In this document: one piece after another, positions 8,747 through 38,599 of the stretch | Position numbering within the stretch: the stretch's first letter is position 1 | How the letters are laid out: the number at the start of each line of letters is the position of its first letter | From: Candidatus Zambryskiibacteriota bacterium | Lineage (GTDB): Bacteria > Patescibacteriota > Minisyncoccia > Phycocordibacterales > Zambryskibacteraceae | Assembly: GCA_016180955.1 (NCBI GenBank) | Contig: JACPAD010000001.1 | Location: forward strand, 75,516-139,515 | Direction: 5' to 3' | Length of the DNA stretch: 64,000 nt | The notes under the pieces: generated by a model | Told to the model about the DNA's origin: nothing | What the model saw: only the letters and a program-made list of their open reading frames with translations | Database searches by the model: none | Program-made: the position numbers and the translations under genes

Positions 8747-8830
8747 TTCTACCTCCTAATAACTGTCCATGGTCATGCTAACATAATCGTAATTGAAAAA
8801 AGCTTAAAATTCCTGTATCTTAACGTATAT

Positions 8831-8901
8831 TGCGGGATCGTCTAATGGTAGGACTGCAGATTCTGGATCTGCGTATCTTGGTTCGAGTCCAAGTCCCGCA
8901 G
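8831..8901 (+). tRNA. tRNA-Gln (anticodon CUG)
   Basis: Cloverleaf read by eye. Acceptor TGCGGGA/TCCCGCA with U1-A72 (Gln hallmark). Anticodon stem GCAGA/TCTGC, loop TTCTGGA. T-arm CTTGG-TTCGAGT-CCAAG. Confidence 0.8.
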
Positions 8902-8996
8902 CCTCTATAAAACTCACCTCATTTTCGGGGAATTTTTGGCGCGCGGCGCGGAGCGCCGAGTATGGAAATAAAGGGGAATCTTCTATACGCCGGTCG
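8897..8996. repeat. Left terminal inverted repeat of tRNA-Gln-adjacent cassette (pairs with 11830-11918; 9-bp indel tataaaact)
   Basis: The reverse complement of 11830-11918 matches 8897-8996 base for base apart from one 9-bp insertion. The repeat starts inside the last 4 nt of the tRNA. Confidence 0.75.
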
Positions 8997-10379
8997 GGTT
9001 CGAGCCGAAGATTTTGGGAGTAGAGATTTTTTGGAGGGGAGGTCGTTCCTTTGAGCGGCTTCAGCTAAGCTTGAAGCCACATTTAGCCATTCCTGCATCG
9101 GTTCGAGCCACGCTTTAGCGTTCCTTTCTAAATTACTTATTTTCTCTTCAAAACTTTTCTTATTAGAGAAAAGTTTTGAGCGCTCTTTGAGATAGGTTTC
9201 TCGGTCTATGTCTTGGGCTATGTAGATATCTAAGAGTCTCTGTATTTTCTCGGAGATAGTAGAAACCCTGTTTCGAAGGTCTTCAATTATTACTGCGCTT
9301 TCTTGCTCGGCCTTCTTTTCATCTTCTTTCATTAACTTTTCAAATTCTTCAGCCCAACGGCTCGGCATAGATGAGCCGTTGAGGATTTCGTTAACCTGTT
9401 CTAACAGCGCTTCTTCTCTTATATGCGGTTCGTTGCAAGGAGTCGTTTTGGACTTCTTCGTGCAATGGTAATAAATATATTTATGGACATTGCCGTTCTT
9501 CTGTCTTTTAACCTTATCCTCTGCCGTTATCATCATCCCGCAAGTAGCACAGCGTAGAAGCCCGCAGAAAGCTTTTGGCTCATTATGTGGCTTCATAGGA
9601 TGGCCTCGCTCAAGGATTACATCTTGGACTTTATCCCAGAGTTTCTTACTAACTATCGGAGGATGCTTACCCTCGTGAATTTCTCCACCATAGAAAAAGT
9701 GGCCATAATAGAATGGATTTGAAAGAATCCACTTAACTCTATCCTTGTGCATTTTCTTTCCGCTTATGGTTCTAACATTTCTCTCGTAAAGAAAATTAGA
9801 AACATCTTCCAGCCGAGCATCGCCGTTTGAATAAAGCTCAAAAGCTTGTTTGAGTATTGGAGCTTTCTTTCTATCCACCACAATAGTTCTTCTCCTTGTA
9901 TCGTTTAAATATCCAGTGGGAGCGGTGCTTGGAAATTCGCCTCGCTTAACCTTTGCCCTTAACCCCCTTTTTACATTAGTACTTAAATCTCTAATAAATT
10001 GGTTGGCCATACCAAACTCCACAGACATCATTAAGACATTGTCTGTGGGGTAGTAACTTCTATCGTGTATAAGCAAGTGCTGAATAATGCCTTGCTGAAG
10101 CATCCAGCTGATCTGTCCGCCGTCTACCGGATTACGGGCAAGGCGATCTAATTTCCAGCACACAATACCTTGCGCCTCGCCCTTTTGAATCTTTTTGACC
10201 ATTTCGTTAAAGACAGGTCTGTCAGGCATTTTAGCCGTGCGCTTTTCCACGAATTCTTCTGTAATAGGCAGACCTTCTTTCTTGGCTAAAGCTCTTAATT
10301 CTGAAAGCTGGGCTTCAATAGAAAGTACTTGTTTGTCTTCGACATCTGTAGATTTTCTAGTGTAGAGAAAGTAATTCAT
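8919..10379 (-). CDS. Large serine recombinase (resolvase/invertase catalytic domain + recombinase domain + zinc ribbon + coiled coil)
   Basis: N-terminus YTRKSTDVEDKQVLSIEAQ (catalytic Ser in the RKST context) ... GIVCWKLDRLARN. Zinc ribbon CGLLRCATCG...YYHC. The C-terminal ~20 codons run into the inverted repeat and may be read-through. Confidence 0.85.
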   Translation of the reverse strand: MNYFLYTRKSTDVEDKQVLSIEAQLSELRALAKKEGLPITEEFVEKRTAKMPDRPVFNEMVKKIQKGEAQGIVCWKLDRLARNPVDGGQISWMLQQGIIQHLLIHDRSYYPTDNVLMMSVEFGMANQFIRDLSTNVKRGLRAKVKRGEFPSTAPTGYLNDTRRRTIVVDRKKAPILKQAFELYSNGDARLEDVSNFLYERNVRTISGKKMHKDRVKWILSNPFYYGHFFYGGEIHEGKHPPIVSKKLWDKVQDVILERGHPMKPHNEPKAFCGLLRCATCGMMITAEDKVKRQKNGNVHKYIYYHCTKKSKTTPCNEPHIREEALLEQVNEILNGSSMPSRWAEEFEKLMKEDEKKAEQESAVIIEDLRNRVSTISEKIQRLLDIYIAQDIDRETYLKERSKLFSNKKSFEEKISNLERNAKAWLEPMQEWLNVASSLAEAAQRNDLPSKKSLLPKSSARTRPAYRRFPFISILGAPRRAPKIPRK

Positions 10380-10387
10380 GGTTAAGT

Positions 10388-10969
10388 TTATCCAACTTGC
10401 CTAGTCCAATCTCGTGCAATACTTTCTATTCGCCCCACCTCAAGTTCTGGTAGCAAGCCTGTATGCATAATTATATTTCGAGATAATTCCAGATCGTTCA
10501 AACGAGAAGAAACCCAATGTTGGTCAGGGAATAAATCAGAAAAATCCTGCCAATTATTTATGATTAGCTGTGATAAATTCGCAAAAGTAGTATAACCAAT
10601 CATCGCTGATGCTCTAGGGGTATGATATTTATTTTTCTCCTCTTTCTCTTTTAAATCAGTTGACGCTTTTTTAATTTTTTCACTCACACAATTAGTTTCC
10701 CACCAACCAGCGCCGTGCCTCTCGCTAAGCCTATCGTCTATGAGCTCCCGAACAGCATTTTCAATACAATAAAACAAGGCATACACCGTGGCCATTCGAC
10801 TAGCCTCATGAATTAAAATCGGACTAAAGTCTGTTTCCTCTATCTTTGCTACAGGGCTTAGTGGAACGCGAATCCCAATTCCTTCATTTTCCAAAGTTTT
10901 CAGGTCCTGTTGAGCAAGAAGGCCATTGAAAACCATCTTTTTAAGACGCGAGACGTGATAATGCTTCAT
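10388..10969 (-). CDS. HEPN-domain protein (Abi/Swt1-like; C-terminal R-x4-H motif)
   Basis: 193 aa, all-helical. C-terminal LELSRNIIMHTG fits the HEPN Rx4-6H nuclease motif. 8 bp upstream of the recombinase gene, same strand. Confidence 0.5.
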   Translation of the reverse strand: MKHYHVSRLKKMVFNGLLAQQDLKTLENEGIGIRVPLSPVAKIEETDFSPILIHEASRMATVYALFYCIENAVRELIDDRLSERHGAGWWETNCVSEKIKKASTDLKEKEEKNKYHTPRASAMIGYTTFANLSQLIINNWQDFSDLFPDQHWVSSRLNDLELSRNIIMHTGLLPELEVGRIESIARDWTRQVG

Positions 10970-11580
10970 TCTCCAAGTAAATTATCCCGAATACTCTTAA
11001 ATATTGCGTTATAAACGCTGATATCGGTAGTAGCTGGTAAGTGAATTTGAATGTTTTGACAGAATTCTATCTGTTTTCCATTCTCAATAGGCAATTTAAG
11101 TGGTAGCATAATATCCTTATCCTTTTTCTCATCAACTGGTTTTTCTTTCACGCGTGGAGAAACACCAAATTTTGCCAAAGCCGCAAGCGTCTTAAATGTT
11201 GCTAAGTATCTGCCAACACTTGCTTCATCCTTGCCCGTTGTACGTGAAATTGCTCCCTTAATTTCACTATCACTTGCTTTTTGGATTTCAGTATTAATAT
11301 TAAATAGATCCCGATATAACTCATTCATTCTTTCCCCAAGAACAAATTGCCAATCCGTCTCATCCTTGAGTCTGTCGTAATATTCTGTAGGCGTTCCCTC
11401 CTCCGTGATAAAACCAAGTCTTTTAAAAAGCGGGATAATGGCTCGGTCATTAGAGCTAGAAAATCCTAAATTTTTTAAAAATTCATGAGTGAATTTAGTA
11501 GGTTTAGCAGCAGTTCTTATTTTTGTAAGAATTGCCTCAATTTTGTTATTAGAAAGCATGTAAGGATATGAATCAGTCAT
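10966..11580 (-). CDS. Hypothetical protein, partner of the HEPN gene (4-nt overlap)
   Basis: 204 aa, no recognisable motif. Translationally coupled to the HEPN gene. Confidence 0.4.
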   Translation of the reverse strand: MTDSYPYMLSNNKIEAILTKIRTAAKPTKFTHEFLKNLGFSSSNDRAIIPLFKRLGFITEEGTPTEYYDRLKDETDWQFVLGERMNELYRDLFNINTEIQKASDSEIKGAISRTTGKDEASVGRYLATFKTLAALAKFGVSPRVKEKPVDEKKDKDIMLPLKLPIENGKQIEFCQNIQIHLPATTDISVYNAIFKSIRDNLLGE

Positions 11581-11678: not shown

Positions 11679-11738
11679 AAGGGAGCTTCGCTAATGCGAA
11701 GAACGTGCGCGCGAAAGGGCGGGTGGGTCAAGCGCACA
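11679..11738. ncRNA. Copy 1 of a duplicated ~60-75-nt structured element (aagggag - variable hairpin - gtgcgcgcgaa.ggg.gggtgggtcaag.gcaca); function unknown
   Basis: Direct comparison with 17738-17815. The flanks are conserved and the hairpin sequence differs but keeps its stem structure. Confidence 0.3.
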
Positions 11739-11829
11739 CACGAAACAGAACGACCGACCCGAACCCAAGTATTTAAAAATCTCCCCTCCAAAATCTTCCG
11801 GCTTTGGATTTTCTGAACCCCACCCTCCA

Positions 11830-11918
11830 CGACCGGCGTATAGAAGATTCCCCTTTATTTCCATACTCGGCGCTCCGCGCCGCGCGCCAAAAATTCCCCG
11901 AAAATGAGGTGAGGCTGC
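11830..11918. repeat. Right terminal inverted repeat of the cassette
   Basis: Exact reverse complement of 8897-8996 apart from the 9-bp indel. Confidence 0.75.
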
Positions 11919-12003
11919 TTTGTATGACCCAATCCGAACCTATTTCCAGAAATTATAATGCAGATTAACCTTACCGCCCAGCGCCTTCGGCGCTGGGCTT
12001 GGC

Positions 12004-12082
12004 CTCGCCCCTTTCCGCTATCATACTTTCAATGTTGGCGGTGATAAGACTTTTTTGAATGGAATGAGCGGAAAGGGGCGAG
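12004..12082. other. Long stem-loop: 15-bp perfect stem (tcgcccctttccgct / agcggaaaggggcga) with a ~48-nt loop, preceded by a second hairpin at 11977-11997
   Basis: Read directly. Located downstream of the minus-strand gene ending at 12089. No canonical T-run follows. Confidence 0.4.
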
Positions 12083-12088
12083 AAAATT

Positions 12089-12730
12089 TTAAAACAAAAC
12101 ATTATTGTAAAATCTAAAAGATTTTGCTGGAGATTTAGTTAATCTAAAGCTCCTGACGTAGCTCTTGCCTCTAAAATTTTCCCATTTACCATCCCACTCT
12201 ACTAAAAATAAAAATCTTGTAGGTCTCAGAGCGTTTTTACTGACTATTACTATTTCAAATAAATAATTTCCTACCGGCAAAGCATTTCTAATTGTTCCAC
12301 TGGGATAACCCTCAGCCATAAGATGTAAAATTTCTTCATTGTCACAGATATAACAGACATCTAAGCGCCTAGAGTGTTTTGGTAGAATGTCAATTGGAGC
12401 TATTGATGGTTCGTGTGCCCACTTTAATTTAACAGGCGACCTAAAACTAGCTAATGCATTAAATTTTGAACCTTCTTTTTCCCAAATTTTAGTAATGTAT
12501 GCCTCGGCATTTCGAGAAACTTCAAATCCTCGATTTTTAACCATTAAATGTAGCCATAAGGACTGCGGTTTATTGGGGTGGTCGACAAGAGTAACTTCAT
12601 AATATGTTTCTGAAGGGACAAAAACTACTTTATGCTTAGACTTATAAAGCATCCATTGCAAAAAGGCATAAGGAATTGCAATTAAGGTAAGTAGTGAAGC
12701 TAACCAAGGAATTGTAATATTTTCTTCCAT
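12089..12730 (-). CDS. Membrane-anchored hypothetical protein
   Basis: 213 aa. One N-terminal TM helix, then a soluble domain with no recognised motif. Last gene of a three-gene minus-strand operon. Confidence 0.4.
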   Translation of the reverse strand: MEENITIPWLASLLTLIAIPYAFLQWMLYKSKHKVVFVPSETYYEVTLVDHPNKPQSLWLHLMVKNRGFEVSRNAEAYITKIWEKEGSKFNALASFRSPVKLKWAHEPSIAPIDILPKHSRRLDVCYICDNEEILHLMAEGYPSGTIRNALPVGNYLFEIVIVSKNALRPTRFLFLVEWDGKWENFRGKSYVRSFRLTKSPAKSFRFYNNVLF

Positions 12731-12742
12731 TACTTCAAATTT

Positions 12743-13117
12743 TTATTCTGGTCTACAATAAAATTCCAATCTGTATCCGTTCGGGTCATCAAACCAGATA
12801 AATTCCTTATTTCCATACTTATCAATCTTCACTCCGTTATTATAGATACCAGCTTCATTAAGAACTTTCTCAAAACCTCTTAATTCTTCGGCAGTCCTCA
12901 CTCCAAAAGCCAAATGATTTAGACTACCTTTGTCTTTATCAATCTTTTGGAAGTCTCCATCAGACAACGCAAGGTATATCGTTGATTCTCCTATTTTATA
13001 TGCCATATATTCCTCATCTAAATGGGATGGGCTACCTAAAAAGGCAGTATAGAACTTCTCAGTTTCCTTAAGATCCTTAACTATCAAAACTATGTGGTCT
13101 ATGAATGAGGGTTTCAT
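12743..13117 (-). CDS. VOC-family protein (glyoxalase / bleomycin-resistance / dioxygenase fold)
   Basis: 124 aa. IDHIVLIVKDLKETEKFY...LNHLAFGV...GYRLEFY follows the paired beta-alpha-beta-beta-beta VOC pattern. Confidence 0.65.
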   Translation of the reverse strand: MKPSFIDHIVLIVKDLKETEKFYTAFLGSPSHLDEEYMAYKIGESTIYLALSDGDFQKIDKDKGSLNHLAFGVRTAEELRGFEKVLNEAGIYNNGVKIDKYGNKEFIWFDDPNGYRLEFYCRPE

Positions 13118-13743
13118 TTCAAATTATTTAGCCTATCAAGTATTTGTTTTGTAAATTTTATTCTTTCCGCAGAAATAGAAGTGGTAAAAGAATTCAGCAA
13201 TTCATAAAAATCTTTGTCTTCTAATTTAATAACCCTGATTGCTTCTACGGGAGCTAAAGACCACTTATCTTGAAGTTCAAACCAGGCTCGTATGGCAAAT
13301 TCATAAAATACTCCAGCATAGAAAAATTCCACCATAGGATTATCACAATATTTTTCTATCTTGAGTTTCCAGCTATCTAATTTCTCAAATCGCTCCAAGA
13401 CACCATTTTTATATAGAGTTAGTGGACCTTTACTAAAATCTTCCTCTGTTTTAGTTAAAACTTTAGAGAGCTTACCCTCAGAGTTATCAAGCAGAATTTT
13501 TAACGGCCATAGTGGGCCTGACGGAATAGTTAGCGGTTTATCCTCGTCTGGCCAGTTCTTAAAAGTAATATCCAGACGCTCACCCTCAAAATCTATAAAC
13601 CCGCCATTTCCTTTCTTTGGACCAAGAAGAAATATATCCCAATCACTTCCGCTAGTTTCTTTTCCTTTTGCGCGAGAGCCGGCAAGAAGAATTACTTCTG
13701 GGTCGTGTTCTGTTTTGATGTATTTAATAATCTTGCCTTCCAT
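13114..13743 (-). CDS. Nucleotidyltransferase (Pol-beta superfamily, KNTase/ANT-like) with C-terminal helical domain
   Basis: GSRAKGKETSGSDWDIFLL matches the GS...DxD NTase signature. 4-nt overlap with the VOC gene. Confidence 0.6.
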   Translation of the reverse strand: MEGKIIKYIKTEHDPEVILLAGSRAKGKETSGSDWDIFLLGPKKGNGGFIDFEGERLDITFKNWPDEDKPLTIPSGPLWPLKILLDNSEGKLSKVLTKTEEDFSKGPLTLYKNGVLERFEKLDSWKLKIEKYCDNPMVEFFYAGVFYEFAIRAWFELQDKWSLAPVEAIRVIKLEDKDFYELLNSFTTSISAERIKFTKQILDRLNNLK

Positions 13744-13777
13744 ACTTAAAAATTAACAGAAATTAGACTTTTTAGCT

Positions 13778-13801
13778 AACGGCTCAATGGGTTGAGCCGT
13801 T
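13778..13801. promoter_or_regulatory. 10-bp perfect inverted repeat (aacggctcaa tggg ttgagccgtt) in the divergent promoter region between the NTase operon and the five-gene operon
   Basis: Read directly. Sits ~50 bp upstream of the 13852 start. Confidence 0.35.
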
Positions 13802-13851
13802 GATAAATTAGTAAGTTTCAAAAATGATGATTTTGTGGGATTATCTTATGC

Positions 13852-14535
13852 ATGGGAGGGACTATATACATCCTAATCAACGAGGCAATGCCTGGGTATG
13901 TCAAGATAGGAAAAACGACTAATTCAGTCGAGCAACGAATGCTTGAATTATCGCGCTCATCGGCCGTGCCAATGCCTTTTGAATGTTACTACGCGGCGGT
14001 GGTAAAAGACATGAATCAAGTAGAAAGAGCATTCCATGATGCTTTCGGCGACTACCGAATAAATCCGAAAAGAGAATTTTTTAATGTGGCTCCAGAACGA
14101 GTAGTTGCTATCCTCAAGCTACTCACCTTAAAAGAAGTTACACCTGGTAGAAATACTGGTATTGAGACAAAAGAGGATGCGATTGCTATTGAGATAGCAA
14201 GGAAAAAGCGATCGGCTTTCAATTTTAAAATGGTAGGTATTCCAGCCGGAGCGGAGCTTAAGTTTGTCCGTGATGAAAATATTATATGTATAGTAGCTCC
14301 AGACCAAAAACATGTTGTATTCGATGGTCGAGAGATGTCCTCCTCTGAAGCTGCCGCTTCAGCATTAGGTAGCAAGTGGTGGCCTCAAGGTCCTGGCTAC
14401 TGGACTTATAATGGGGAAACTTTAGATGCCCGTCGTTTGCGTATGGAAGAGGGTGATGAACCTACTCCGGAAGAAATAGAAGCTGCAGGTGACCAATGGC
14501 TATCATTGCAAGCAGATATAGCTAGAGGCAAATAA
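13852..14535 (+). CDS. GIY-YIG family protein (T5orf172-like N-terminal domain) with uncharacterised C-terminal domain
   Basis: GTIYILINEAMPGYVKIGKT supplies the GIY and YIG motifs. Conserved Arg/Glu/Asn follow (RMLEL...FNVAPE). First gene of the operon. Confidence 0.6.
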   Translation: MGGTIYILINEAMPGYVKIGKTTNSVEQRMLELSRSSAVPMPFECYYAAVVKDMNQVERAFHDAFGDYRINPKREFFNVAPERVVAILKLLTLKEVTPGRNTGIETKEDAIAIEIARKKRSAFNFKMVGIPAGAELKFVRDENIICIVAPDQKHVVFDGREMSSSEAAASALGSKWWPQGPGYWTYNGETLDARRLRMEEGDEPTPEEIEAAGDQWLSLQADIARGK

Positions 14536-14539
14536 GTTT

Positions 14540-15682
14540 ATGGCAAACAAAAATCTTACAAATGCGAAACGGGCAAAGAACGACGAGTTTTATACCCAAT
14601 ATGGCGATATCCAAAAGGAAATTCAAGCATATTTGGATTTTAGTCCTAATGTATTTCGAGGCAAGGTAGTCTATTGCAACTGTGATGACCCATTCGAGAG
14701 CAACTTCTTTCGTTATTTTGTGCTTAATTTCAACAAGCTTGGATTAAAACAACTTATTACTACCAGCTACAAACCTTCGCCGATTGCCAATACGGAGCTT
14801 GTATTACAGTCTTCTCTTCTCCCTGGCTATGAAGGTAGTATCGTGAGAAAACCATCAGAATCAAAAGGTCGACCAAAAATAACTGCCAATAAATTTATTA
14901 TTAATGAAGTGCAGGATGTGGACGGCGACGGCGAGTTCAATTTGAAGGATGTTGCTAAGCAGTTAAAGGCAAACAAAAACAACGAATGGATGCCGCTTGA
15001 GAAAGATGGCGATTTCAGAAGTCCCGAGTGCGTAAAATTACTGGAGCAATCTGACATTATAGTGACAAATCCACCCTTTAGTCTATTCCGCGAATATGTT
15101 AAACAACTCTTTGATTACAACAAAAAGTTTGTCATTATCGGCAACATGAATGCAATTATGTATAAGGAAATTTTTCCATTGATGAAGGCCGATAAAATGT
15201 GGCTGGGTAATGGTTTCCATGCCGGAAACGCCTATTTTTCTACCCCTTTTGCCAAAGAATACGGTGAGGGCGTATACAATCCTGAAACAGGTTTGGTAAA
15301 GTTCAGAAATGTTTGTTGGTTTACGAACCTTGATCATGGGCGTCGTCATCAACCATTGCCACTTATGACAATGAGTGAGAATTTAAAATATAGTAAACAT
15401 AAGGAAATCAAAGGTAAAAAATCCTATGATAAATATGACAACTACGACGCAATAGAAGTTTCGTTTACTGACGCTATTCCCAGTGATTATGATGGCGTAA
15501 TGGGTGTGCCAGTTAGTTTTTTAGACAAATATTCACCAGAACAATTTGAAATTATAGGAACTAGCGCCAATGGATTAGTGAGTAATGAATGGAAGTCGCC
15601 ACATTTTAAAAAACATAATAATCCATTTATAGGTAAAAAGCCGATCTTCCAGAGAGTGCTGATAAGACACAGAAAAAAATAA
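14540..15682 (+). CDS. N6-adenine DNA methyltransferase
   Basis: Catalytic NPPF tetrapeptide ([11 protein letters not shown]). N-terminal NDEFYT motif. 4-bp gap after the upstream gene. Confidence 0.75.
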
Positions 15683-15683
15683 T

Positions 15684-16847
15684 ATGAAAACGACTCTAAA
15701 AACTAATATGACTGTCAAAGAAATCTGCGAAGGGTTCGTTTATAACGAACTTGAAGGTAAGGGTTTATTCGGGTTATCTGGCAAGCTTACAATTCAGCCA
15801 GAGTATCAGCGTAACTATATTTATGCAGAAGAAGGAAGGGAGACGGCAGTTATTGATTCAATCCTAAAAGGATATCCACTTGGGTTAATTTACTTCCATA
15901 AGGTTAATGATGATACTTTCGAAGTTTTAGATGGACAGCAACGTATCACCAGTATCGGGCGTTTTGTGAATGAAAAGTTTGCCATTAAAGATGAAAACGG
16001 GATGCAACAAAATTTTAGTGGTATGGCAGAGAACAAGAAAACCAAGATTTGGGAAACGAAATTACTCATTTACGAATGTGAGGGTGAAGAAAGTGAAATA
16101 AAAGATTGGTTTAAAACGATTAATATTGCTGGAATCCCACTTAGGAATCAGGAATTACTCAATGCTGTGTATTCTGGGTCATTCGTGACGTTAGCAAGAG
16201 AGGAATTTAGCAACCGCCAAAATGCGAACATTCAGAAATGGGGCGCATATATATCAGGCAGTGCGAACCGTCAGGATTTCTTAGAGCGAGCACTTGAATG
16301 GGTAAGTAAGGGAAATATTGAGGGCTATATGACGCTTCATCGTCACGATAAAAACATCACTGAGCTAAAGAAATATTTCAACAGCGTGATTGACTGGGTA
16401 TCTAGTGTGTTTACCGATGTAGAAAACGAAATGCGTGGGCTTGAGTGGGGGCGATTATACGAGGAGTATCACAAAAAGGCATATAGTCCGGCAAAAGTAT
16501 CGGCAGATGTGCGTAAGCTCTATGGCGATCCGTATATAAAAAATCGCAAAGGTATTTTTGAATATATTCTTGGCGGTTCAGTTGATACGAAGTTGCTAGA
16601 TGTTCGGATTTTTGATGAAACAATCAAAAGAGCTGTTTATGCAAAACAAACTAGCGAAGCTGAAACTAAAGAGAAATCAAACTGCCCGCATTGTGCTATT
16701 GGACACGATGCTAACAAGAGCAAGATTTGGAGTTTTGGCGAAATGGAAGCAGATCATGTATCCGCTTGGGTTAAAGGTGGTGCGACTTCAGCCAAGAATT
16801 GTCAGATGCTCTGCAAGACACATAATCGAGCAAAGGGTAATCGTTAA
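15684..16847 (+). CDS. DUF262 (ParB/Srx-like, DGQQR motif) fused to a C-terminal HNH endonuclease; GmrSD/SspE-like type IV restriction architecture
   Basis: [15 protein letters not shown] is the DUF262 hallmark. C-terminal CPHCAIGHD...EADHVSAW...[15 protein letters not shown] is a canonical HNH motif. Confidence 0.75.
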
Positions 16848-16871
16848 AGAACTTTAGTGTAAAATTAAATT

Positions 16872-17159
16872 ATGTACTATATATTCACTCTAATTATCGG
16901 TTTTCTACTCGGTTATTTTATTGCTTCTAAAAAGCAGGAGGTCGGCTTCATTTCTAAGCAACAGGAAGAAAAGAAACGGAATAAACAAGCAATTTTTGAG
17001 CTTCTGGAAACTAATCACCCTCTTACCAATAACGATGTGGAAGTAATGCTTGGCATTTCTGACGCCACCGCCACCAGATATTTCGACGAGTTAGAGAAAG
17101 AAGGTAAAGTGCGCCAAGTGGGGAAAACTGGTCGATACGTGAATTACGAAAGAGTTTAA
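16872..17159 (+). CDS. Small membrane-anchored protein with C-terminal wHTH-like domain (paralogous to C-terminus of 17161-17739)
   Basis: 95 aa. N-terminal TM helix. C-terminus LTNNDVEVMLGISDATATRYFDELEKEGKVRQVGKTGRYVNY. Confidence 0.4.
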   Translation: MYYIFTLIIGFLLGYFIASKKQEVGFISKQQEEKKRNKQAIFELLETNHPLTNNDVEVMLGISDATATRYFDELEKEGKVRQVGKTGRYVNYERV

Positions 17160-17160
17160 A

Positions 17161-17739
17161 ATGGCAGAAGAAACTACAACTGAACCTGTAGCAAACGAGT
17201 CGGTTGCCGAACCTGCTCCGGTCCAACCTGAACCGGTAGTAATAACTCCACCCGCATCCGAATCAACTGCAGAACCGGCAGTGGTCGAGGAAACCCCAAC
17301 GCCTCAACCCGCTGAGCCGTTGAATCCAGAGCCGATTTTAGAACCCCCGTTGACTCCTGAACCTGTGCAAGAGCCAGCCATTGAAACTCCACCTATAACC
17401 CATAGTCCCGAGCCTGAATCGGTGTCCCAACCTGAATCTTCCGCTACTTCCGCACCTGTTACCGTTCCCGAACCACAAGTTATCGCCTCTGCTTTTTCAA
17501 TTAGCCGAGCTCACGAACTTCTGATCAAGGCTCGTGAAGCTATACAATTCCGCAAGCGTAAAAAGCTAGAAAAGATTATGAGTATGTTTCTGAAACAAAG
17601 CAGTATCACGAATGATGAAGTGGAGAAACTTTTGCATATCTCTGACGCAACAGCCACACGCTACCTAGACCAACTTGAACGTGAAGGAAAGATTAAGAAA
17701 GGGAATGCTGGAAAGTATCTGTCGTATTCCAGAATGTAA
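17161..17739 (+). CDS. Pro/Glu-rich low-complexity protein with the same C-terminal wHTH-like domain
   Basis: 192 aa. Residues ~10-110 are PEP/TPE repeats. C-terminus ITNDEVEKLLHISDATATRYLDQLEREGKIKKGNAGKYLSY. 1-bp gap from the previous gene. Confidence 0.4.
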   Translation: MAEETTTEPVANESVAEPAPVQPEPVVITPPASESTAEPAVVEETPTPQPAEPLNPEPILEPPLTPEPVQEPAIETPPITHSPEPESVSQPESSATSAPVTVPEPQVIASAFSISRAHELLIKAREAIQFRKRKKLEKIMSMFLKQSSITNDEVEKLLHISDATATRYLDQLEREGKIKKGNAGKYLSYSRM

Positions 17740-17815
17740 GGGAGTATCTGCCGTATCCTCTCTGACCTACGGCAGATGGTGCGCGCGAACGGGAGGGTGG
17801 GTCAAGTGCACATGG
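17738..17815. ncRNA. Copy 2 of the duplicated structured element, starting at the stop codon of the 17161-17739 gene
   Basis: Flanks are conserved with copy 1 (35 aligned positions, 4 mismatches). The hairpin has a different sequence but the same structure. Confidence 0.3.
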
Positions 17816-18117
17816 ATTTTGAGGCCTCGGGCATTTCCGCGACGGGCGTCCTGGCCAACGGGTGAGCATCGCCGCTAAACGAAGGTACTGACTAACGAAA
17901 CTTGCCACTAAACGCAGTAATGAAAACGAGGAAGGGGGTTGTGCAACGACGGAATCCGAAGGAACGAGGATGAGGAGGAGCTGGGGGAAGGATTCCTTCC
18001 TTTCCAACCTCTGGTTTAGTTTCTGATTTTATTGTTATGTAAAAATTAACAGAATCACTATTTTTTGCCAGAAACTTACCATCCATTATAATTTTCCTAT
18101 AGGATTGTTATGAAAAG

Positions 18118-18146
18118 GCCCCGCTCCGACTTCGGTCGGAGCGGGG
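18118..18146. terminator. Bidirectional hairpin ccccgctccgac ttcg gtcggagcgggg, terminator of the minus-strand phosphoesterase gene
   Basis: Perfect 12-bp stem. On the minus strand it is followed by ttttcat. Same hairpin family as 27187-27212. Confidence 0.55.
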
Positions 18147-21767: not shown

Positions 21768-24700
21768 CTAGAGAGTAGTTGAGAGGCCCGGATGACTGGA
21801 CGATTCCATAGCTTGTATTGTTTGGAGTTGCTGTATCAAGAGAACAAGAAGTTGCTGAATAAGAGAGATCAGGTGGATCTTGATGGCCGTGATAACCTTC
21901 TGGTTGGCCTGCTCAACATTTAGCGTGGGAGCTACAGTAGTAAGTCCTTGGGCTATTTGAATAACAGGAGAGGTCGTAAAGGAGTTAGTCCCCCCGCCAC
22001 CGCTGCCACCGCCGTTGTTACCATTGGAGCTAGGCGCAGGCGCTGGTTCTGATTTGGGTTCTGGTTCTGCTTCGCCCGCCGGAGGTTTATCCGACGTGTC
22101 CGTCGGGGCTTCAATAGAGTCGGAAGGCTCGGGAATTAGCTCGGGCGTTGGTTCTGGTTCAGCTTCGCCCGCCGGAGGTTTATCCGAAGGCTGGGGAATA
22201 GGTTCCGATATTGATTCTGGTTCAGGAATTTGTCCTGCGAGTTCTTGGATCTCTGCCAGTGAAAGCGCTCGGTTGTAGATGCGAACATCGTCAAGTGAAC
22301 CTTTAAATTTTTCGGTCAATCCCCCGTTAGTGGCAATTCTCAAAGGAGTACTGTAGGAGCTGATAGAACCCGTAACGGATTTCGAGCCGAACTCTACTCC
22401 ATCAACGTAAATCTTAATAGTCGAGCCGTCATAGACTCCGACAATGTGGTGCCAAACAGAAGCATTGATAAAAATACTGGAAGCGATATGTTGACGGCTT
22501 CCGCCAATAGTCACCCAGAAACGAGGCTCTAGTGCAGTCGGGGAAACGTACAGTCCATGCAAACCATAAGAAAAATAGGGAGGCTCGTGACTGGCGGCAT
22601 TCACCGGTTTGGCGATAAATATCTGATGCGTCCCTGTATTGCTGAAATTCACCCAAGTAGACAATGAGACTGCATTTCCGGAAAGAGCAAGCGATGGCGA
22701 ATGCGCTACCTCCATATAATCATTAATGCCGTTAAAGTTGAGTGCGCCATTGGCTTGGTTAATAGTCCAGATTAGACCGTTTATGAGAGTGCCACCGCTT
22801 TCTGGCTCTGGCGTTGGCTCGGGCGTTGGTTCTGGTTGTGGTTCCGGAGTCGGCTCTGGTTCGGGAATAGGTTCTGGTATTGGTTCAGGCTCGGGAGTAG
22901 GCTCTGGATCTGGAGTAGGGGCACCGACAAATTCATAAGCGCCTATGTCATATGCCAAACCCTGCGGTCTCACTATGCCATCACGGTCGTTGGTAACTGA
23001 TTCAATAGAAACTCCGTTATTTACTGCCGGAGAAGAAGGAGTTAAATGATAATCATTGCTACCTACACTGACAAATGAATCTAGAGTAACAGCTCTATTA
23101 GATACTCCTGACGCTTGGGATGGAAGGGTTTCTCTTAAGAATAATGAGTTTTTCGCGTCAAAAATGGTGGACGGAGATGAAGCGCTGAAGAACGGATTAG
23201 GAACATTGGCTCCAAAAGTAGTGTTGTATACTTTCGGGTTCACTATGTTGTCTTCATACCTGATGCCGTACGTTGTATCGTATATAACTGCATTTTGAAT
23301 GGTAACATCTGCTCCGCCGTTAGGACCCGGTCCTCTCAACCTAAATCCAATTTCCGAATCATGAACGGTTATTTGGTCAAATACGGCTTGAACATTTTCC
23401 TTGATGTTGAAAGCGGCCATATTAGTGACGAGGCCGTTTCTAAACCCAAAGACAGTAGTATTTTTGATAGTGATGAGAGCCCGACTGAAGGCGCCATTAG
23501 ACTTAGTATCGACCGCATTTTCGCCGGGGACAAAGCCGGCCGGCATGCCGTTCTCTGTGGCAGGCAAAGGACCGGTCCAAAATTTAGAATTCTCAATCAC
23601 AATATTATTCCAGCCCGGAGAATTCCTGCCGGGGTCAACTTGGACAGAATCCCCAGTAACATGGTAAATCTCGGTATCGCGTATGGTGAGATTTTTAACA
23701 GCCGCGCCGGTGATACCGTGAGCGTCGCTTTGAGAAGTGCCCGCATACCAGATGCAGTGATGGATGATATCGTTTTCAAACAAGACATCTGTAGGAGAAG
23801 CCATATCAACGCAATCTCTGCCCGCTCTTTTTATTTCAGAGTTCTTGATGATTAAATTAGTAGCACTGCTCCCCACTGAAATAAGGTCGGAGGCGCCGTA
23901 TTGGCCATCGAACACGAGGCCGTCGATAATGATATAAGGATGCGAGAAGTTGGCAACACTGCCGCTTTTAGTCACAACGGCCGTGCCTCTGCCGGATTCA
24001 GAACGGATAGTGATTGGCAGAGAAGCTGTGCCCGCTCTCACCGTAAAGATTAATTCATTGTAGGTGCCCGACTTAACGATGACGGTATGTCCTGCTTGGG
24101 CGACATTGATGGCGTCTTGGATTTTTCCAAAAGGACTTGCGGCATTACCGTTACCGGAAGCGCCGGAAGCGACATACCAGACTGTGTTAGCAGGCACCGG
24201 CTCTGGTTCTGGGACTGGTTCAGGTTCAGGCGTTGGTTCCGGAGTAGGTTCTGGTTCCGGCTCTGGAGTGGGTATAGGTGTTGGAGTTGGGTCTGTTATA
24301 GGATTGGTGGAGACGATGAGTTCGTCATACCAGGTGACCGCAGGGTCATGGATAACGGAGAGAAGCTTGCCTTGATTGTCCGGTCCCAAAATAATTTTAT
24401 TGTATCCGGAGCCCGGATCATTGGGATTTTCAACCAACACGGCGTCAGTAACATTGAAAATCTCTCTAAGCAACTCTCCTTCTTTCGCGACCCAGATACT
24501 GATAGCGCTGTTTTCCTCACCCCAATTGCCGATAATCACTTTCATGTAGAAGGTCATCCATTGGTCCGCGACATAAGTGAATGGTGTGCCGTTAGGATTG
24601 TGGGTAATGCCGTTTTCAAACAGAATTGGTACACCTTGAAAGACGCGGTTGTAGAGTCCTATCTCTATCGGGTCGCCGTAAGTGCCAAATTGAGAGGTCA

Positions 24701-25121
24701 AAAGAACTTGGTTCCATCCATTGCCGCCCATTTCAGCATTGAACATCTCGCTTGAAAACTTTTGTCTGAACTGGACATAGAAGGTAGAGCCGGGGCTAAA
24801 TCCGTTTCCGAATTCGTCAAAAACCTTCTCGAAAGCTCCAGACGAGTTATTGCCGGAAAGAGACGGGACTACAAACTTTAAAGACCCCTCGCCGGAAGCA
24901 TAATTAGTGTCATCAAACGTCCCCCAAATGTTACCCAAATTGTCTCCGTAGACATAGGTATCCACTTGAGAGACAGAGTCGAAGCCATTGCATAAAACTA
25001 CCCCCGGTTCCAAACATTTGGAAGCAAAGTCGTTGCCAGCGGCATTGACCGTATTAATGCCAGCCGGCGTTAAGATAAAAACCCCAATAAACGCTGTATT
25101 TAATATAAGATTTTTAGCCAT
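21768..25121 (-). CDS. Large secreted surface protein: signal peptide, right-handed beta-helix (pectate-lyase-like) region, LamG/ConA-like lectin domain, three PE/PT-rich linkers, Gly-rich tail
   Basis: 1117 aa. Signal peptide [29 protein letters not shown]. NxxIxxN-type beta-helix repeats. LamG-like [20 protein letters not shown]. Linkers [22 protein letters not shown]. Confidence 0.6.
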
Positions 25122-34912: not shown

Positions 34913-35527
34913 TTAGCTTGAAGTTAATTCCAGCAGAGCCTCTAGAGCAGATGGCAAGTTATCAATTCCATCACTTCCACTAAAATGGCCCTTGTTATTT
35001 TCTACAATAATTTTTGCGCCCAATTTTTCTTTGAAGATCTCTGCATCACTTAATGGAACTAATGAATCATTATCGGAGAATATAGCTATAAATTTCTTTG
35101 TATGATATTTAATCTTTGCCCAATTTATTGGAGTTTCCAACCAAGACTTCGCAATTTCTGCGTCTTCCGCGTCATCATAAGCTTCATTAGTTAAGTTGAC
35201 CCACCCGGCAAGAAACACGGCTCCACCGATTTTTACATTATCAGGAAGATTTTCTAAGTATCTTAAAATAGTTTGTACTCCGATAGAGTGCCCAAACAGG
35301 TAAGTATTTTCGTCTGGAGTTCCAATTAAATTATTAAGAAATGAGACCCAGGTCTCAATTTCCGGCCTTAAGGGATTCGGCATAGCGGGGTTAAATACTT
35401 GGAAGCCTTTAGTTTGAAGTTCTTTCTTTAACCATGGAAAACAGCCTTCTTCTGGATGCCCACCCCAACCATGAATGATAAAGACTCTTTTCATATCAGA
35501 AACTGATAGTTTATTTATATCCACCAT
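34913..35527 (-). CDS. Alpha/beta hydrolase, RBBP9/YdeN-like serine hydrolase
   Basis: IIHGWGGHPEE...LFGHSIGVQ (GxSxG). Confidence 0.55.
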   Translation of the reverse strand: MVDINKLSVSDMKRVFIIHGWGGHPEEGCFPWLKKELQTKGFQVFNPAMPNPLRPEIETWVSFLNNLIGTPDENTYLFGHSIGVQTILRYLENLPDNVKIGGAVFLAGWVNLTNEAYDDAEDAEIAKSWLETPINWAKIKYHTKKFIAIFSDNDSLVPLSDAEIFKEKLGAKIIVENNKGHFSGSDGIDNLPSALEALLELTSS

Positions 35528-37327: not shown

Positions 37328-37420
37328 TTATAGCCCTCTAAATTCACCCTTAAAAACTCCAGTTTTTAAGGGTGTTATAGCCCTCTAAATTCACCCTTAA
37401 AAACTCCAGTTTTTAAGGGT
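37328..37420. repeat. Tandem direct repeat, 2 x 47 bp, each unit containing a 12-bp perfect palindrome (cccttaaaaact cc agtttttaaggg)
   Basis: The units at 37328-37374 and 37375-37420 are identical except for the last base. Confidence 0.7.
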
Positions 37421-37889
37421 GGTTTAGAGTACGGAGATCGGAGAGGACTTCGGAAGCGTGTTTGGGCGGCTTCACATTTTCATAAACTTTTTTGATTTTG
37501 CCATCCGGTCCGATGAGGAATGAGGTCCTGCGGACGCCCATATACTTCTTCCCTGCCATATTCTTCTCTCCCCAGACCCCATATTTTTTAATTATCTTTT
37601 TATCTTCGTCTGAGAGAAGTACGAACGGCAGGTCATAAGTATCCGCAAATTTCCTGTGACTCTCCACAGAGTCTTTCGAAACTCCCAGCACTATAGCTTT
37701 TATCTTTTTAAAATCCTGGAACTGGTCGCGGATAGTACAAGCCTCAACCGTACACCCCGGCGTATCATCCTTCGGATAGAAATACAACAACACCCACTTG
37801 CCCTTGTAGTCCGAGAGCTTATGAGTCTTCCCGTCTTGGTCCGGAAGTGAGAAATTTGGAGCTTTGGAATTAAGTTTAGGTAATGGCAT
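37413..37889 (-). CDS. bcp: Peroxiredoxin Bcp (thiol peroxidase, AhpC/TSA family)
   Basis: KDDTPGCTVEAC contains the peroxidatic and resolving Cys. Confidence 0.8.
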   Translation of the reverse strand: MPLPKLNSKAPNFSLPDQDGKTHKLSDYKGKWVLLYFYPKDDTPGCTVEACTIRDQFQDFKKIKAIVLGVSKDSVESHRKFADTYDLPFVLLSDEDKKIIKKYGVWGEKNMAGKKYMGVRRTSFLIGPDGKIKKVYENVKPPKHASEVLSDLRTLNHP

Positions 37890-38527: not shown

Positions 38528-38599
38528 GCTGCCGGGGAACGACTCGAACGTTCATACTCGCCTCCAAAGGGCGATGTCCTACCATTAGACGACCCGGCA
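38528..38599 (-). tRNA. tRNA-Gln (anticodon UUG)
   Basis: Reverse complement folds as TGCCGGG / D-arm GTCTAATGGTAGGAC / anticodon stem TCGCC, loop CTTTGGA / T-arm GAACG-TTCGAGT-CGTTC / CCCGGCA, with U1-A72. Confidence 0.75.

Follow-up and report, generated by a model that had tools for sequence, protein, structure and literature searches.

Genomic islands driven by large serine recombinases (LSRs) include SCCmec (with its Ccr recombinases), the fdxN element (XisF), and the tycheposon-type islands that target tRNA genes (bioRxiv 10.1101/2020.12.28.424599). The island considered here lies in a 64,000-nucleotide stretch (hereafter the window) of the genome of a Candidatus Zambryskiibacteriota bacterium (GenBank assembly GCA_016180955.1, contig JACPAD010000001.1, positions 75,516 to 139,515 of the forward strand), and it shares with those systems an LSR gene next to a junction, insertion at the conserved end of a host gene (here the 3' end of a tRNA gene), and variable, defense-rich cargo. 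It is one of a group of islands of the candidate phyla radiation (CPR) that differ from them in having near-perfect inverted repeats of 70 to 290 nucleotides (nt) that bracket the LSR gene and often the cargo, and in keeping an internal inverted attP-like junction, a P arm that mimics a tRNA T arm, the use of many tRNAs, and a structured head motif. This motif, which occurs twice in the window, is the subject of the present analysis. We establish its membership in a family, its covarying structure, its architecture, and its position relative to att-like junctions. We infer from sequence comparison that it acts as an RNA, and the reading that we favor, with about even confidence, is that it forms the 5' head domain of a structured RNA or leader encoded by the island (the RNA head domain of an island arm).

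Other described systems resemble parts of this arrangement. GOLLD, ROOL, and HEARO (omega) RNAs are likewise long, highly conserved noncoding regions (here 0.3 to 0.9 kb) with covarying helices, carried by mobile DNA and often located near tRNA genes; in contrast, the regions that begin with our motif are restricted to the CPR, form part of a serine-recombinase att arm, have no Rfam match, and gave no hit in IMG/VR that would point to a phage context. The HK022 put RNAs and the 5' stabilizers of Gram-positive bacteria (STAB-SD) are portable modules, with about 70 nt and two stem-loops or a Shine-Dalgarno (SD)-like start, that act in cis on conserved host machinery. What they would have in common with the motif is a module at the start of a long transcript and two copies per element; there is no sequence similarity, and one of the window copies points away from any gene. 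Integron attC and attI sites provide a folded, strand-specific element after cassette stop codons, conserved flanks with a variable center, and a divergent recombinase gene, all of which find a parallel here. However, the motif lacks the R''/L''-L'/R' boxes (RYYYAAC/GTTRRRY) of attC, the sole recombinase is a serine enzyme (there is no tyrosine integrase), the cargo is multigenic and bidirectional, and the boundaries of exchange are not at the element. Finally, the yeast 2-micron plasmid has two unique segments and two inverted repeats, a layout of the chloroplast type. The same plan is seen at six of our loci (L065, L011, L153, L175, L180, and L189), where LSR and cargo segments are separated by two identical inverted repeats, but the element is integrated and uses a serine recombinase instead of FLP. 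The motif did not qualify as a member of any of the specific families against which we checked it. In the literature, we found no description of the motif, of the type-A region that follows it at some loci, or of a double inverted-repeat LSR island in the CPR.

Two copies of a structured motif flank low-GC DNA

The two copies in the window are as follows.

11680-11737, plus strand: copy 1, "type D" motif; P2 stem 11705-11709/11733-11737, core 11710-11732; covariance model score 54.5 bits
17739-17811, plus strand: copy 2, "type A" head; P2 stem 17779-17783/17807-17811 (one G-U pair), core 17784-17806; covariance model score 57.8 bits

In copy 1, AGGGAG (11680-11685) is followed by a hairpin, P1 (cttcgc/taat/gcgaag, 11686-11701), and by the closing stem-loop P2 (GTGCG-CGCGAAAGGGCGGGTGGGTCAAG-CGCAC, 11705-11737). 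In copy 2, the first A of AGGGAG (17739-17744) is the last base of the TAA stop codon (17737-17739) of a winged helix-turn-helix (wHTH) gene, P1 (atctgccgta...tacggcagat) occupies 17746-17777, and P2 reads GTGCG-CGCGAACGGGAGGGTGGGTCAAG-TGCAC (17779-17811). Both copies were found again where an earlier, sequence-only reading had placed them, including the start of copy 2 at the wHTH stop codon; the 4 mismatches in 35 positions given there are corrected to 3 differences in a conserved block of 34 nt. This block is a hairpin in both copies, and a c/t difference turns a G-C pair into a G-U pair. A repeat search of the window aligned the copies over 39 nt at 87% identity, and a degenerate 34-nt pattern matched twice in the 64 kb, against 0.00 matches expected from 100 shuffles. 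The duplication is real, and chance is excluded. A candidate third copy, at 35195, was rejected as a chance match within a coding region. Single-sequence folding energies are only weakly unusual (z-scores of -2.4 and -0.1 for copies 1 and 2, respectively), so the case for structure is comparative, not thermodynamic.

The copies flank and delimit a low-GC stretch, as had been claimed (GC content of 0.35 to 0.41 at 12 to 17 kb, versus about 0.48 elsewhere). Copy 1 does lie in the 5' region of the recombinase cassette, about 100 nt upstream of a DUF5343-HEPN-recombinase operon and on the opposite strand, where it abuts a divergent promoter-like site of this operon (11676-11648, minus strand).

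The motif defines a family in CPR genomes

Further copies, which the sequence-only reading had suggested looking for, are numerous. A scan with the exact pattern CGCGAANGGGNGGGTGGGTCAAG, one genome per species, found at least 118 motif loci in genome contigs; identity across loci at 21 specified loop positions is imposed by this pattern. Among the 80 loci listed, almost all come from metagenome-assembled genomes (MAGs) of CPR bacteria (Patescibacteria), among them Nomurabacteria, Paceibacterota, Saccharibacteria, Gracilibacteria, Doudnabacteria, Uhrbacteria, and Magasanikiibacteriota. The viral contigs of IMG/VR gave 0 matches, which makes a phage origin unlikely. In Rfam 15, no model matches the motif: searches with the window copies and full-length relatives, at gathering and permissive (E<=5) thresholds, returned only tRNAs, one rRNA, and chance-level matches.

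The motif consists of single-stranded AGGGAG, an optional P1 with a CU-rich loop, a P2 of 5 to 7 bp, a short P2b, and a G-rich loop of 13 nt. Conservation sets in sharply at A/GGGAG (slashes in sequences and arm names mark boundaries), and 96 of 109 sequences have the A. Upstream of this boundary, the family alignment shows no conserved promoter. A co-oriented open reading frame (ORF) of at least 60 codons ends 0 to 30 nt before GGGAG at 76 of 103 loci, and its TAA or TAG is often fused to the motif. The possibility that AGGGAG is the SD sequence of a small ORF was rejected, as there is no conserved start codon.

Of 101 distinct versions of the motif, 83 carry P1, a GC-rich hairpin (mean folding free energy, -17.3 versus -5.8 for shuffled sequences), and the other 18 lack it. 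A GC-rich hairpin right after a stop codon, followed in several subfamilies (H3 and H6 heads) by TTTT, might be an ordinary intrinsic terminator or insulator at the cargo end, and a chance resemblance between GC-rich terminators had been raised as the explanation for the two copies. We consider this highly improbable, given that a terminator scan scores neither window copy, that P1 is dispensable whereas the conserved P2 has no U-tract, and that conservation runs on for hundreds of bases downstream, with a chance expectation of 0.

Covariation is strong in P2, where 95 cells carry double-sided changes, compared with 38.7 +/- 7.4 in shuffles (0/500), and 90.5% of cells pair in register, compared with 12 to 58% in slid registers. 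At pair 8/34, 44 sequences have CG and 37 have UA, and the inner pair A5-U19 of P2b becomes C5-G19 in L142, L125, and the left copy of L065. This inner helix, brought out by the more divergent copies, leaves a terminal loop of 13 nt, AyGGGnGGGUGGG. Compensatory pairs in many sequences, which characterize conserved structured RNAs, are found in both P2 and P2b. The view of the motif as a selected structured element with conserved flanks, tied to a recombinase island, is upheld, and the "covarying hairpin" placed between its flanks stands in part: structure and covariation are real, but the variable P1 is an optional insert, and the covarying helix that defines the motif is P2.

These pair-keeping changes bear on whether the motif could instead be a protein-binding site, at which the wHTH protein or the LSR would bind as to an operator or "arm" site and so control the LSR promoter or the synapse. 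Such a role would suit the promoter-like site beside copy 1, the wHTH gene that is a conserved neighbor of type-A heads, and the similar G-rich and C-rich boxes in both repeat arms. Yet the change from CG to UA in 37 of 84 sequences favors a folded strand over a duplex, and the motif also occurs without a wHTH neighbor in types B, C, D, and E; we regard this role as distinctly improbable.

The loop carries three contiguous G-tracts (GGGnGGGTGGG), and the distal GGG of AGGGAG lies 10 to 50 nt away across P1. The motif might therefore work as DNA, with the G-rich strand folding during transcription or replication into a hairpin plus a G-quadruplex built from the three loop tracts and the 5' GGG. 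Such a fold would stimulate recombination or gene conversion that flips or homogenizes the inverted repeats or swaps cargo, for which the G-quadruplex of Neisseria pilE is a precedent. Consistent with this, the G-tracts are kept while their spacers (y and n) vary, AGGGAG is constant, one relative tolerates a hairpin inserted inside the terminal loop, between the G-tracts, the motif lies beside near-perfect inverted repeats that imply ongoing gene conversion, and the arrangements of heads and bodies described below are mosaic. But only three tracts are contiguous, with the fourth set off across P1, other loop positions (CGCGAA and UCAAG) are as conserved as the G-tracts, and P2b encloses the tracts in an ordinary hairpin loop. 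A DNA-level role of this kind is, in our judgment, quite unlikely.

Conserved noncoding bodies follow the motif

The sequence 3' of the motif is of at least five types, A to E, each conserved and noncoding over 300 to 900 nt; type A, to which copy 2 belongs, reaches about 900 nt in L021. A stand-alone small RNA of about 70 nt, one of the roles first proposed, does not account for conservation that continues for 0.3 to 0.9 kb downstream. The consensus fold of type A contains variable inserted hairpins and a long-range helix of 23 bp that spans 280 to 470 nt. In this fold 98.5% of cells are paired, and 36 changes are double sided, compared with 12.2 +/- 2.4 in shuffles, a modest covariation support in that many pairs are invariant. 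Its helices include many G-U pairs on the motif strand. C-rich boxes are found downstream in all types, at 3 to 5.7 per kb on the motif strand, compared with at most 1.7 on the opposite strand and at most 0.6 upstream. Minus-strand ORFs in the type-A region (cluster 0) were set aside as probably spurious because their start and end points are inconsistent.

Heads and bodies assort independently and are joined just after P2. Head H2 occurs with bodies B, C, D, and E, H1 with A and C, and H4 with B and D. At 10 or more type-A loci, homologues of the window wHTH protein (cluster 3) are encoded directly upstream of the motif.

We also observed that a perfect hairpin of 30 nt from the type-A body (GGGGAGAGGAAACTTCCTCTCCCC-like) occurs alone in the cargo of L004, L119, L120 (7429-7458), L126, and L131. 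The type-A body of the window leaves the consensus right after its own GGGGAGAGGAAACTTCCTCTCCCC-like hairpin, at 17981-18006.

Motif loci lie in LSR islands at tRNA genes

Regions that bear the motif belong to islands with an LSR gene at tRNA 3' ends, and LSR homologues are present at 26 motif loci. At type-D loci, the order is tRNA, inverted-repeat arm, LSR gene (on the opposite strand), motif, and second inverted-repeat arm. The arms, present at all 10 loci checked, are 70 to 158 nt long and 89 to 100% identical (93 to 100% for arms of at least 69 nt); the left arm overlaps the last 4 to 7 nt of the tRNA, and MAG contigs typically stop at the outer edge of the right arm. A metagenome scan with the LSR alignment returned 80 loci, of which 50 or 20 were inspected per count. 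At 42 of 50 loci, no more than 450 nt separate the LSR 3' end from a tRNA gene (13 tRNA species in all), an inverted repeat brackets the LSR gene at 36 of 50, and a second inverted repeat, abutting the first and bracketing the cargo, is present at 7 of 20. Near-perfect repeats and contig breaks at them suggest ongoing inversion or gene conversion, and from repeat identity and these breaks the islands appear to undergo flip-flop inversion. Two LSR copies occur on some metagenome contigs (L147, L162, and L171), where the inverted repeats are multiple or nested (one in L147 extends to 1.5 kb at 80% identity), which suggests tandem or composite islands.

The full pattern, tRNA/P'-LSR-rcP'.rcP-(rc body)-cargo-(motif-body)-P/B', where rc stands for reverse complement, is found in L065, L011, and L189. 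The latter two are inserts between two tRNA genes (tRNA-Val and tRNA-Arg in L011, tRNA-Leu and tRNA-Pro in L189), with the motif and body inside the insert. In L065, the junctions read ..GGAAC/ATGGTTGG, ..GCTGAAC/ATGGTTGG, and ..GCTGAAC/AAAAATT. P arms end in a sequence like a tRNA T arm; in the window, GGTTCGGATTGGGTCATACAAAGCAGC/ may be compared with GGTTCGAGTCCAAGTCCCGCAGC of tRNA-Gln, and the ends in L065, L021, and L120 are analogous. The motif lies 90 to 900 nt from att-like junctions and always points toward one. At the B- and C-type loci, in the left part of L065, and in L120, the motif, body, P/P' junction, and LSR gene are all on one strand, so that at these loci a long leader of the recombinase gene starts with the motif.

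At L024, L096, and L018, the motif or the P2 stem-loop alone directly follows a tRNA 3' end with no recombinase gene between, and only 30 to 130 nt of type-A body are kept at L018 and L096. These arrangements resemble scars, or alternative joints, produced by that same recombination machinery.

The island in the window and its relatives

In addition to the two copies, the island comprises the following features.

8831-8903, plus strand: tRNA-Gln(ctg), found by ARAGORN and Rfam; its 3' end is the attB-like left island junction
8913-9031: left arm of the inverted repeat (IRa, P' arm); 8913-8996 perfect, 9003-9031 imperfect, with G-rich boxes
8919-10379, minus strand: LSR gene, with resolvase, recombinase, and zinc-ribbon domains (Pfam)
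10388-10969, minus strand: HEPN gene (HEPN_Swt1, Pfam); PADLOC candidate PDC-M34B
10966-11580, minus strand: DUF5343 gene (Pfam); PADLOC candidate PDC-M34A
11775-11913: right arm of the inverted repeat (IRa'); 11830-11913 perfect, 11775-11803 imperfect, with C-rich boxes
11914-12088, minus strand: inverted distal type-A region and P arm, homologous to L009 +438..+589, reversed; the P arm abuts the repeat
12089-17159: variable cargo, encoding an unknown protein of 213 amino acids (aa), a glyoxalase-fold protein, a nucleotidyltransferase, T5orf172, an EcoRI-like methyltransferase, GmrSD/HNH, and a small wHTH protein
17161-17739, plus strand: wHTH gene (Pfam) whose stop codon abuts copy 2; cluster 3 homologues
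17812-18006, plus strand: proximal part of the type-A body after copy 2, truncated, without the 3' partner of the long helix and without the P arm

The perfect 84-nt inverted repeat (8913-8996 and 11830-11913) brackets the LSR gene, the HEPN-DUF5343 pair, and copy 1, and its left arm contains the LSR stop codon. The two window junctions are tRNA-Gln end/CTCACCTC.. (8903-8913) and ..GGTTCGGATT..GCAGC/CTCACCTC.. (11913/11914). Within IRa', 11819-11828 (CCCACCCTCC) is complementary to the motif loop, and the inverted distal region holds hairpins at 11976-11998 and 12004-12082. For the LSR, NCBIfam gave weak CcrB/XisF-like matches below the cutoffs. The HEPN-DUF5343 pair, which sits between the LSR gene and copy 1, matches PADLOC PDC-M34 (B and A) with E about 1e-65, and further cargo of defense type lies on the plus strand at 13852-16847, where T5orf172 (PDC-S57) and an EcoRI-like adenine methyltransferase accompany a GmrSD_N+HNH nuclease (a type II restriction endonuclease by PADLOC scoring). 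The exact wHTH protein (17161-17739) has no record in public assemblies. Near 12090 and 18006, the approximate positions at which inversion is presumed to have broken the sequence, neither inverted nor direct repeats rose above the level of shuffled sequence. Alignments to a degenerate P arm at 18017-18118 were marginal, with 1 to 3 of 300 shuffles scoring as high, and disagreed with one another; we make no claim for one.

The closest relative, L119, has an LSR 88% identical to that of the window, the same tRNA-Gln, the same layout, and entirely different cargo; its second motif copy is direct and has a variant core, and the HEPN-DUF5343 pair is replaced by unrelated DNA. Homology to the window covers 8828-10379, 11705-12091, and 17605-17850, so that the swap begins about 350 nt inward of copy 1 and stops about 130 nt short of copy 2. 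The exchanged DNA (12091 to about 17605) is thus nested inside the copies and does not end at them. In L120 (LSR identity, 75%), the type-A arm is intact and joined to P', and two motif copies converge on the internal junction; in L065, the copies are inverted. The methyltransferase and GmrSD/nuclease pair of the window is shared with L065, a Magasanikiibacteriota island, and both islands are beside tRNA-Gln(ctg).

These comparisons speak to the proposal that the copies are att-like sites, which the LSR or another enzyme would recombine to excise or exchange the 6-kb cargo in the manner of integron cassettes. In its favor, the copies are direct repeats that flank the cargo, conservation sets in sharply at A/GGGAG right behind the final cargo gene, copy 1 and the recombinase gene diverge much as attI and intI do in integrons, and heads and bodies, with a breakpoint just after P2, assort independently. 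However, the junctions of att character lie elsewhere (tRNA/P', internal P/P', and P/B'), in the window at the 3' end of tRNA-Gln and on the outer side of each 84-nt repeat arm, whereas a serine-integrase att site would be exactly at the junction of element and target, where the motif is not. The swap in L119 is bounded at about 12091 and about 17605, so relatives do not differ by exactly the DNA between the copies, as had been suggested as a check, and the copies converge in L120 and have inverted orientation in L065. Moreover, most islands of this LSR family lack the canonical motif, and covariation of a 5-bp stem is unexpected for a site that a serine recombinase recognizes as duplex. We think it rather unlikely that the copies are att-like sites.

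Two repeats elsewhere in the window were noted in passing. An exact tandem duplication with a 47-nt unit (37328-37421), each unit containing a 30-nt palindrome (CACCCTTAAAAACTCCAGTTTTTAAGGGTG), lies in low-GC DNA at 35 to 37 kb near tRNA-Gln(ttg) (38528-38599); a second island at this low-GC region (35 to 38 kb) was ruled out, as there is no recombinase there. At 22032-22907, 63-nt coding units rich in Gly and Ser codons are repeated within an ORF of 1,117 aa (21768-25121).

Discussion

We favor the motif as an RNA head domain because of the covariation of P2 and P2b, the RNA-like structure of the bodies, the sharp 5' boundary after co-oriented genes, and the constant orientation. The RNA would be produced by read-through from the last cargo gene, and its head would be oriented always toward the att arm and, in the canonical layout, also toward the LSR gene. 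With the latter orientation, a long structured leader would start at the motif and extend across the internal attP-like junction. The exposed G-rich segments may nucleate folding, stabilize the transcript or protect its 5' end, or allow read-through; they might do this by pairing with the downstream C-rich boxes or by binding another conserved partner or a host component. Any particular biochemical role of the head domain is one that we hold with less than even confidence. In the window, copy 1 would be a head beside the P' arm, inside an LSR unit bracketed by the inverted repeat, and copy 2, downstream of the wHTH gene, would head a type-A arm that has decayed. That the two are direct repeats with the cargo between them reflects how the island is laid out in this lineage and does not mark them as crossover sites.

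Several observations weigh against a head domain that acts as RNA. Copy 1 points away from the LSR gene, and copy 2 may be a relic because the body that follows it is truncated. The strand test for P2 is weak (3 G-U versus 5 A-C cells), and the alifold energy of type A shows a modest strand preference (-52.7 kcal/mol on the plus strand versus -47.0 on the minus strand). Most pairs of the 23-bp helix never vary, and gene conversion that homogenizes inverted repeats could mimic covariation in it. The invariance of 21 loop positions was imposed by the search pattern. By inspection, neither loop position n nor the G-rich loop covaries with any C-rich box. Finally, the mosaicism of heads and bodies also fits a role in recombination at the DNA level.

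A bolder possibility is that the motif heads an undescribed class of large structured RNAs, 0.3 to 0.9 kb in length, that function as components of a serine-recombinase system, although we consider this unlikely. Such an RNA would run from the cargo across the attP-like junction, end in the mimic of a tRNA T arm, and continue into the recombinase gene, and it could sense, license, or help target recombination at diverse tRNA genes. The islands would then be flip-flop elements, similar to the 2-micron plasmid, that shuttle defense genes among CPR bacteria.

The CPR accounts for a large share of bacterial diversity, and little is known about gene exchange in it. The islands described here form a family that is driven by LSRs, targets tRNA genes, has a double inverted-repeat layout, carries restriction-modification and candidate defense systems, and occurs in MAGs labeled as many CPR lineages. 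Two features without an Rfam match come to light with them, a conserved structured noncoding element and a long region of RNA-like character. Even on a conservative reading, the motif is useful as a marker of island boundaries and contig breaks in CPR metagenome assemblies. If it is true that an RNA controls or assists the LSR, this would be a new mode of regulation for serine recombinases, which are widely used as tools for genome engineering.

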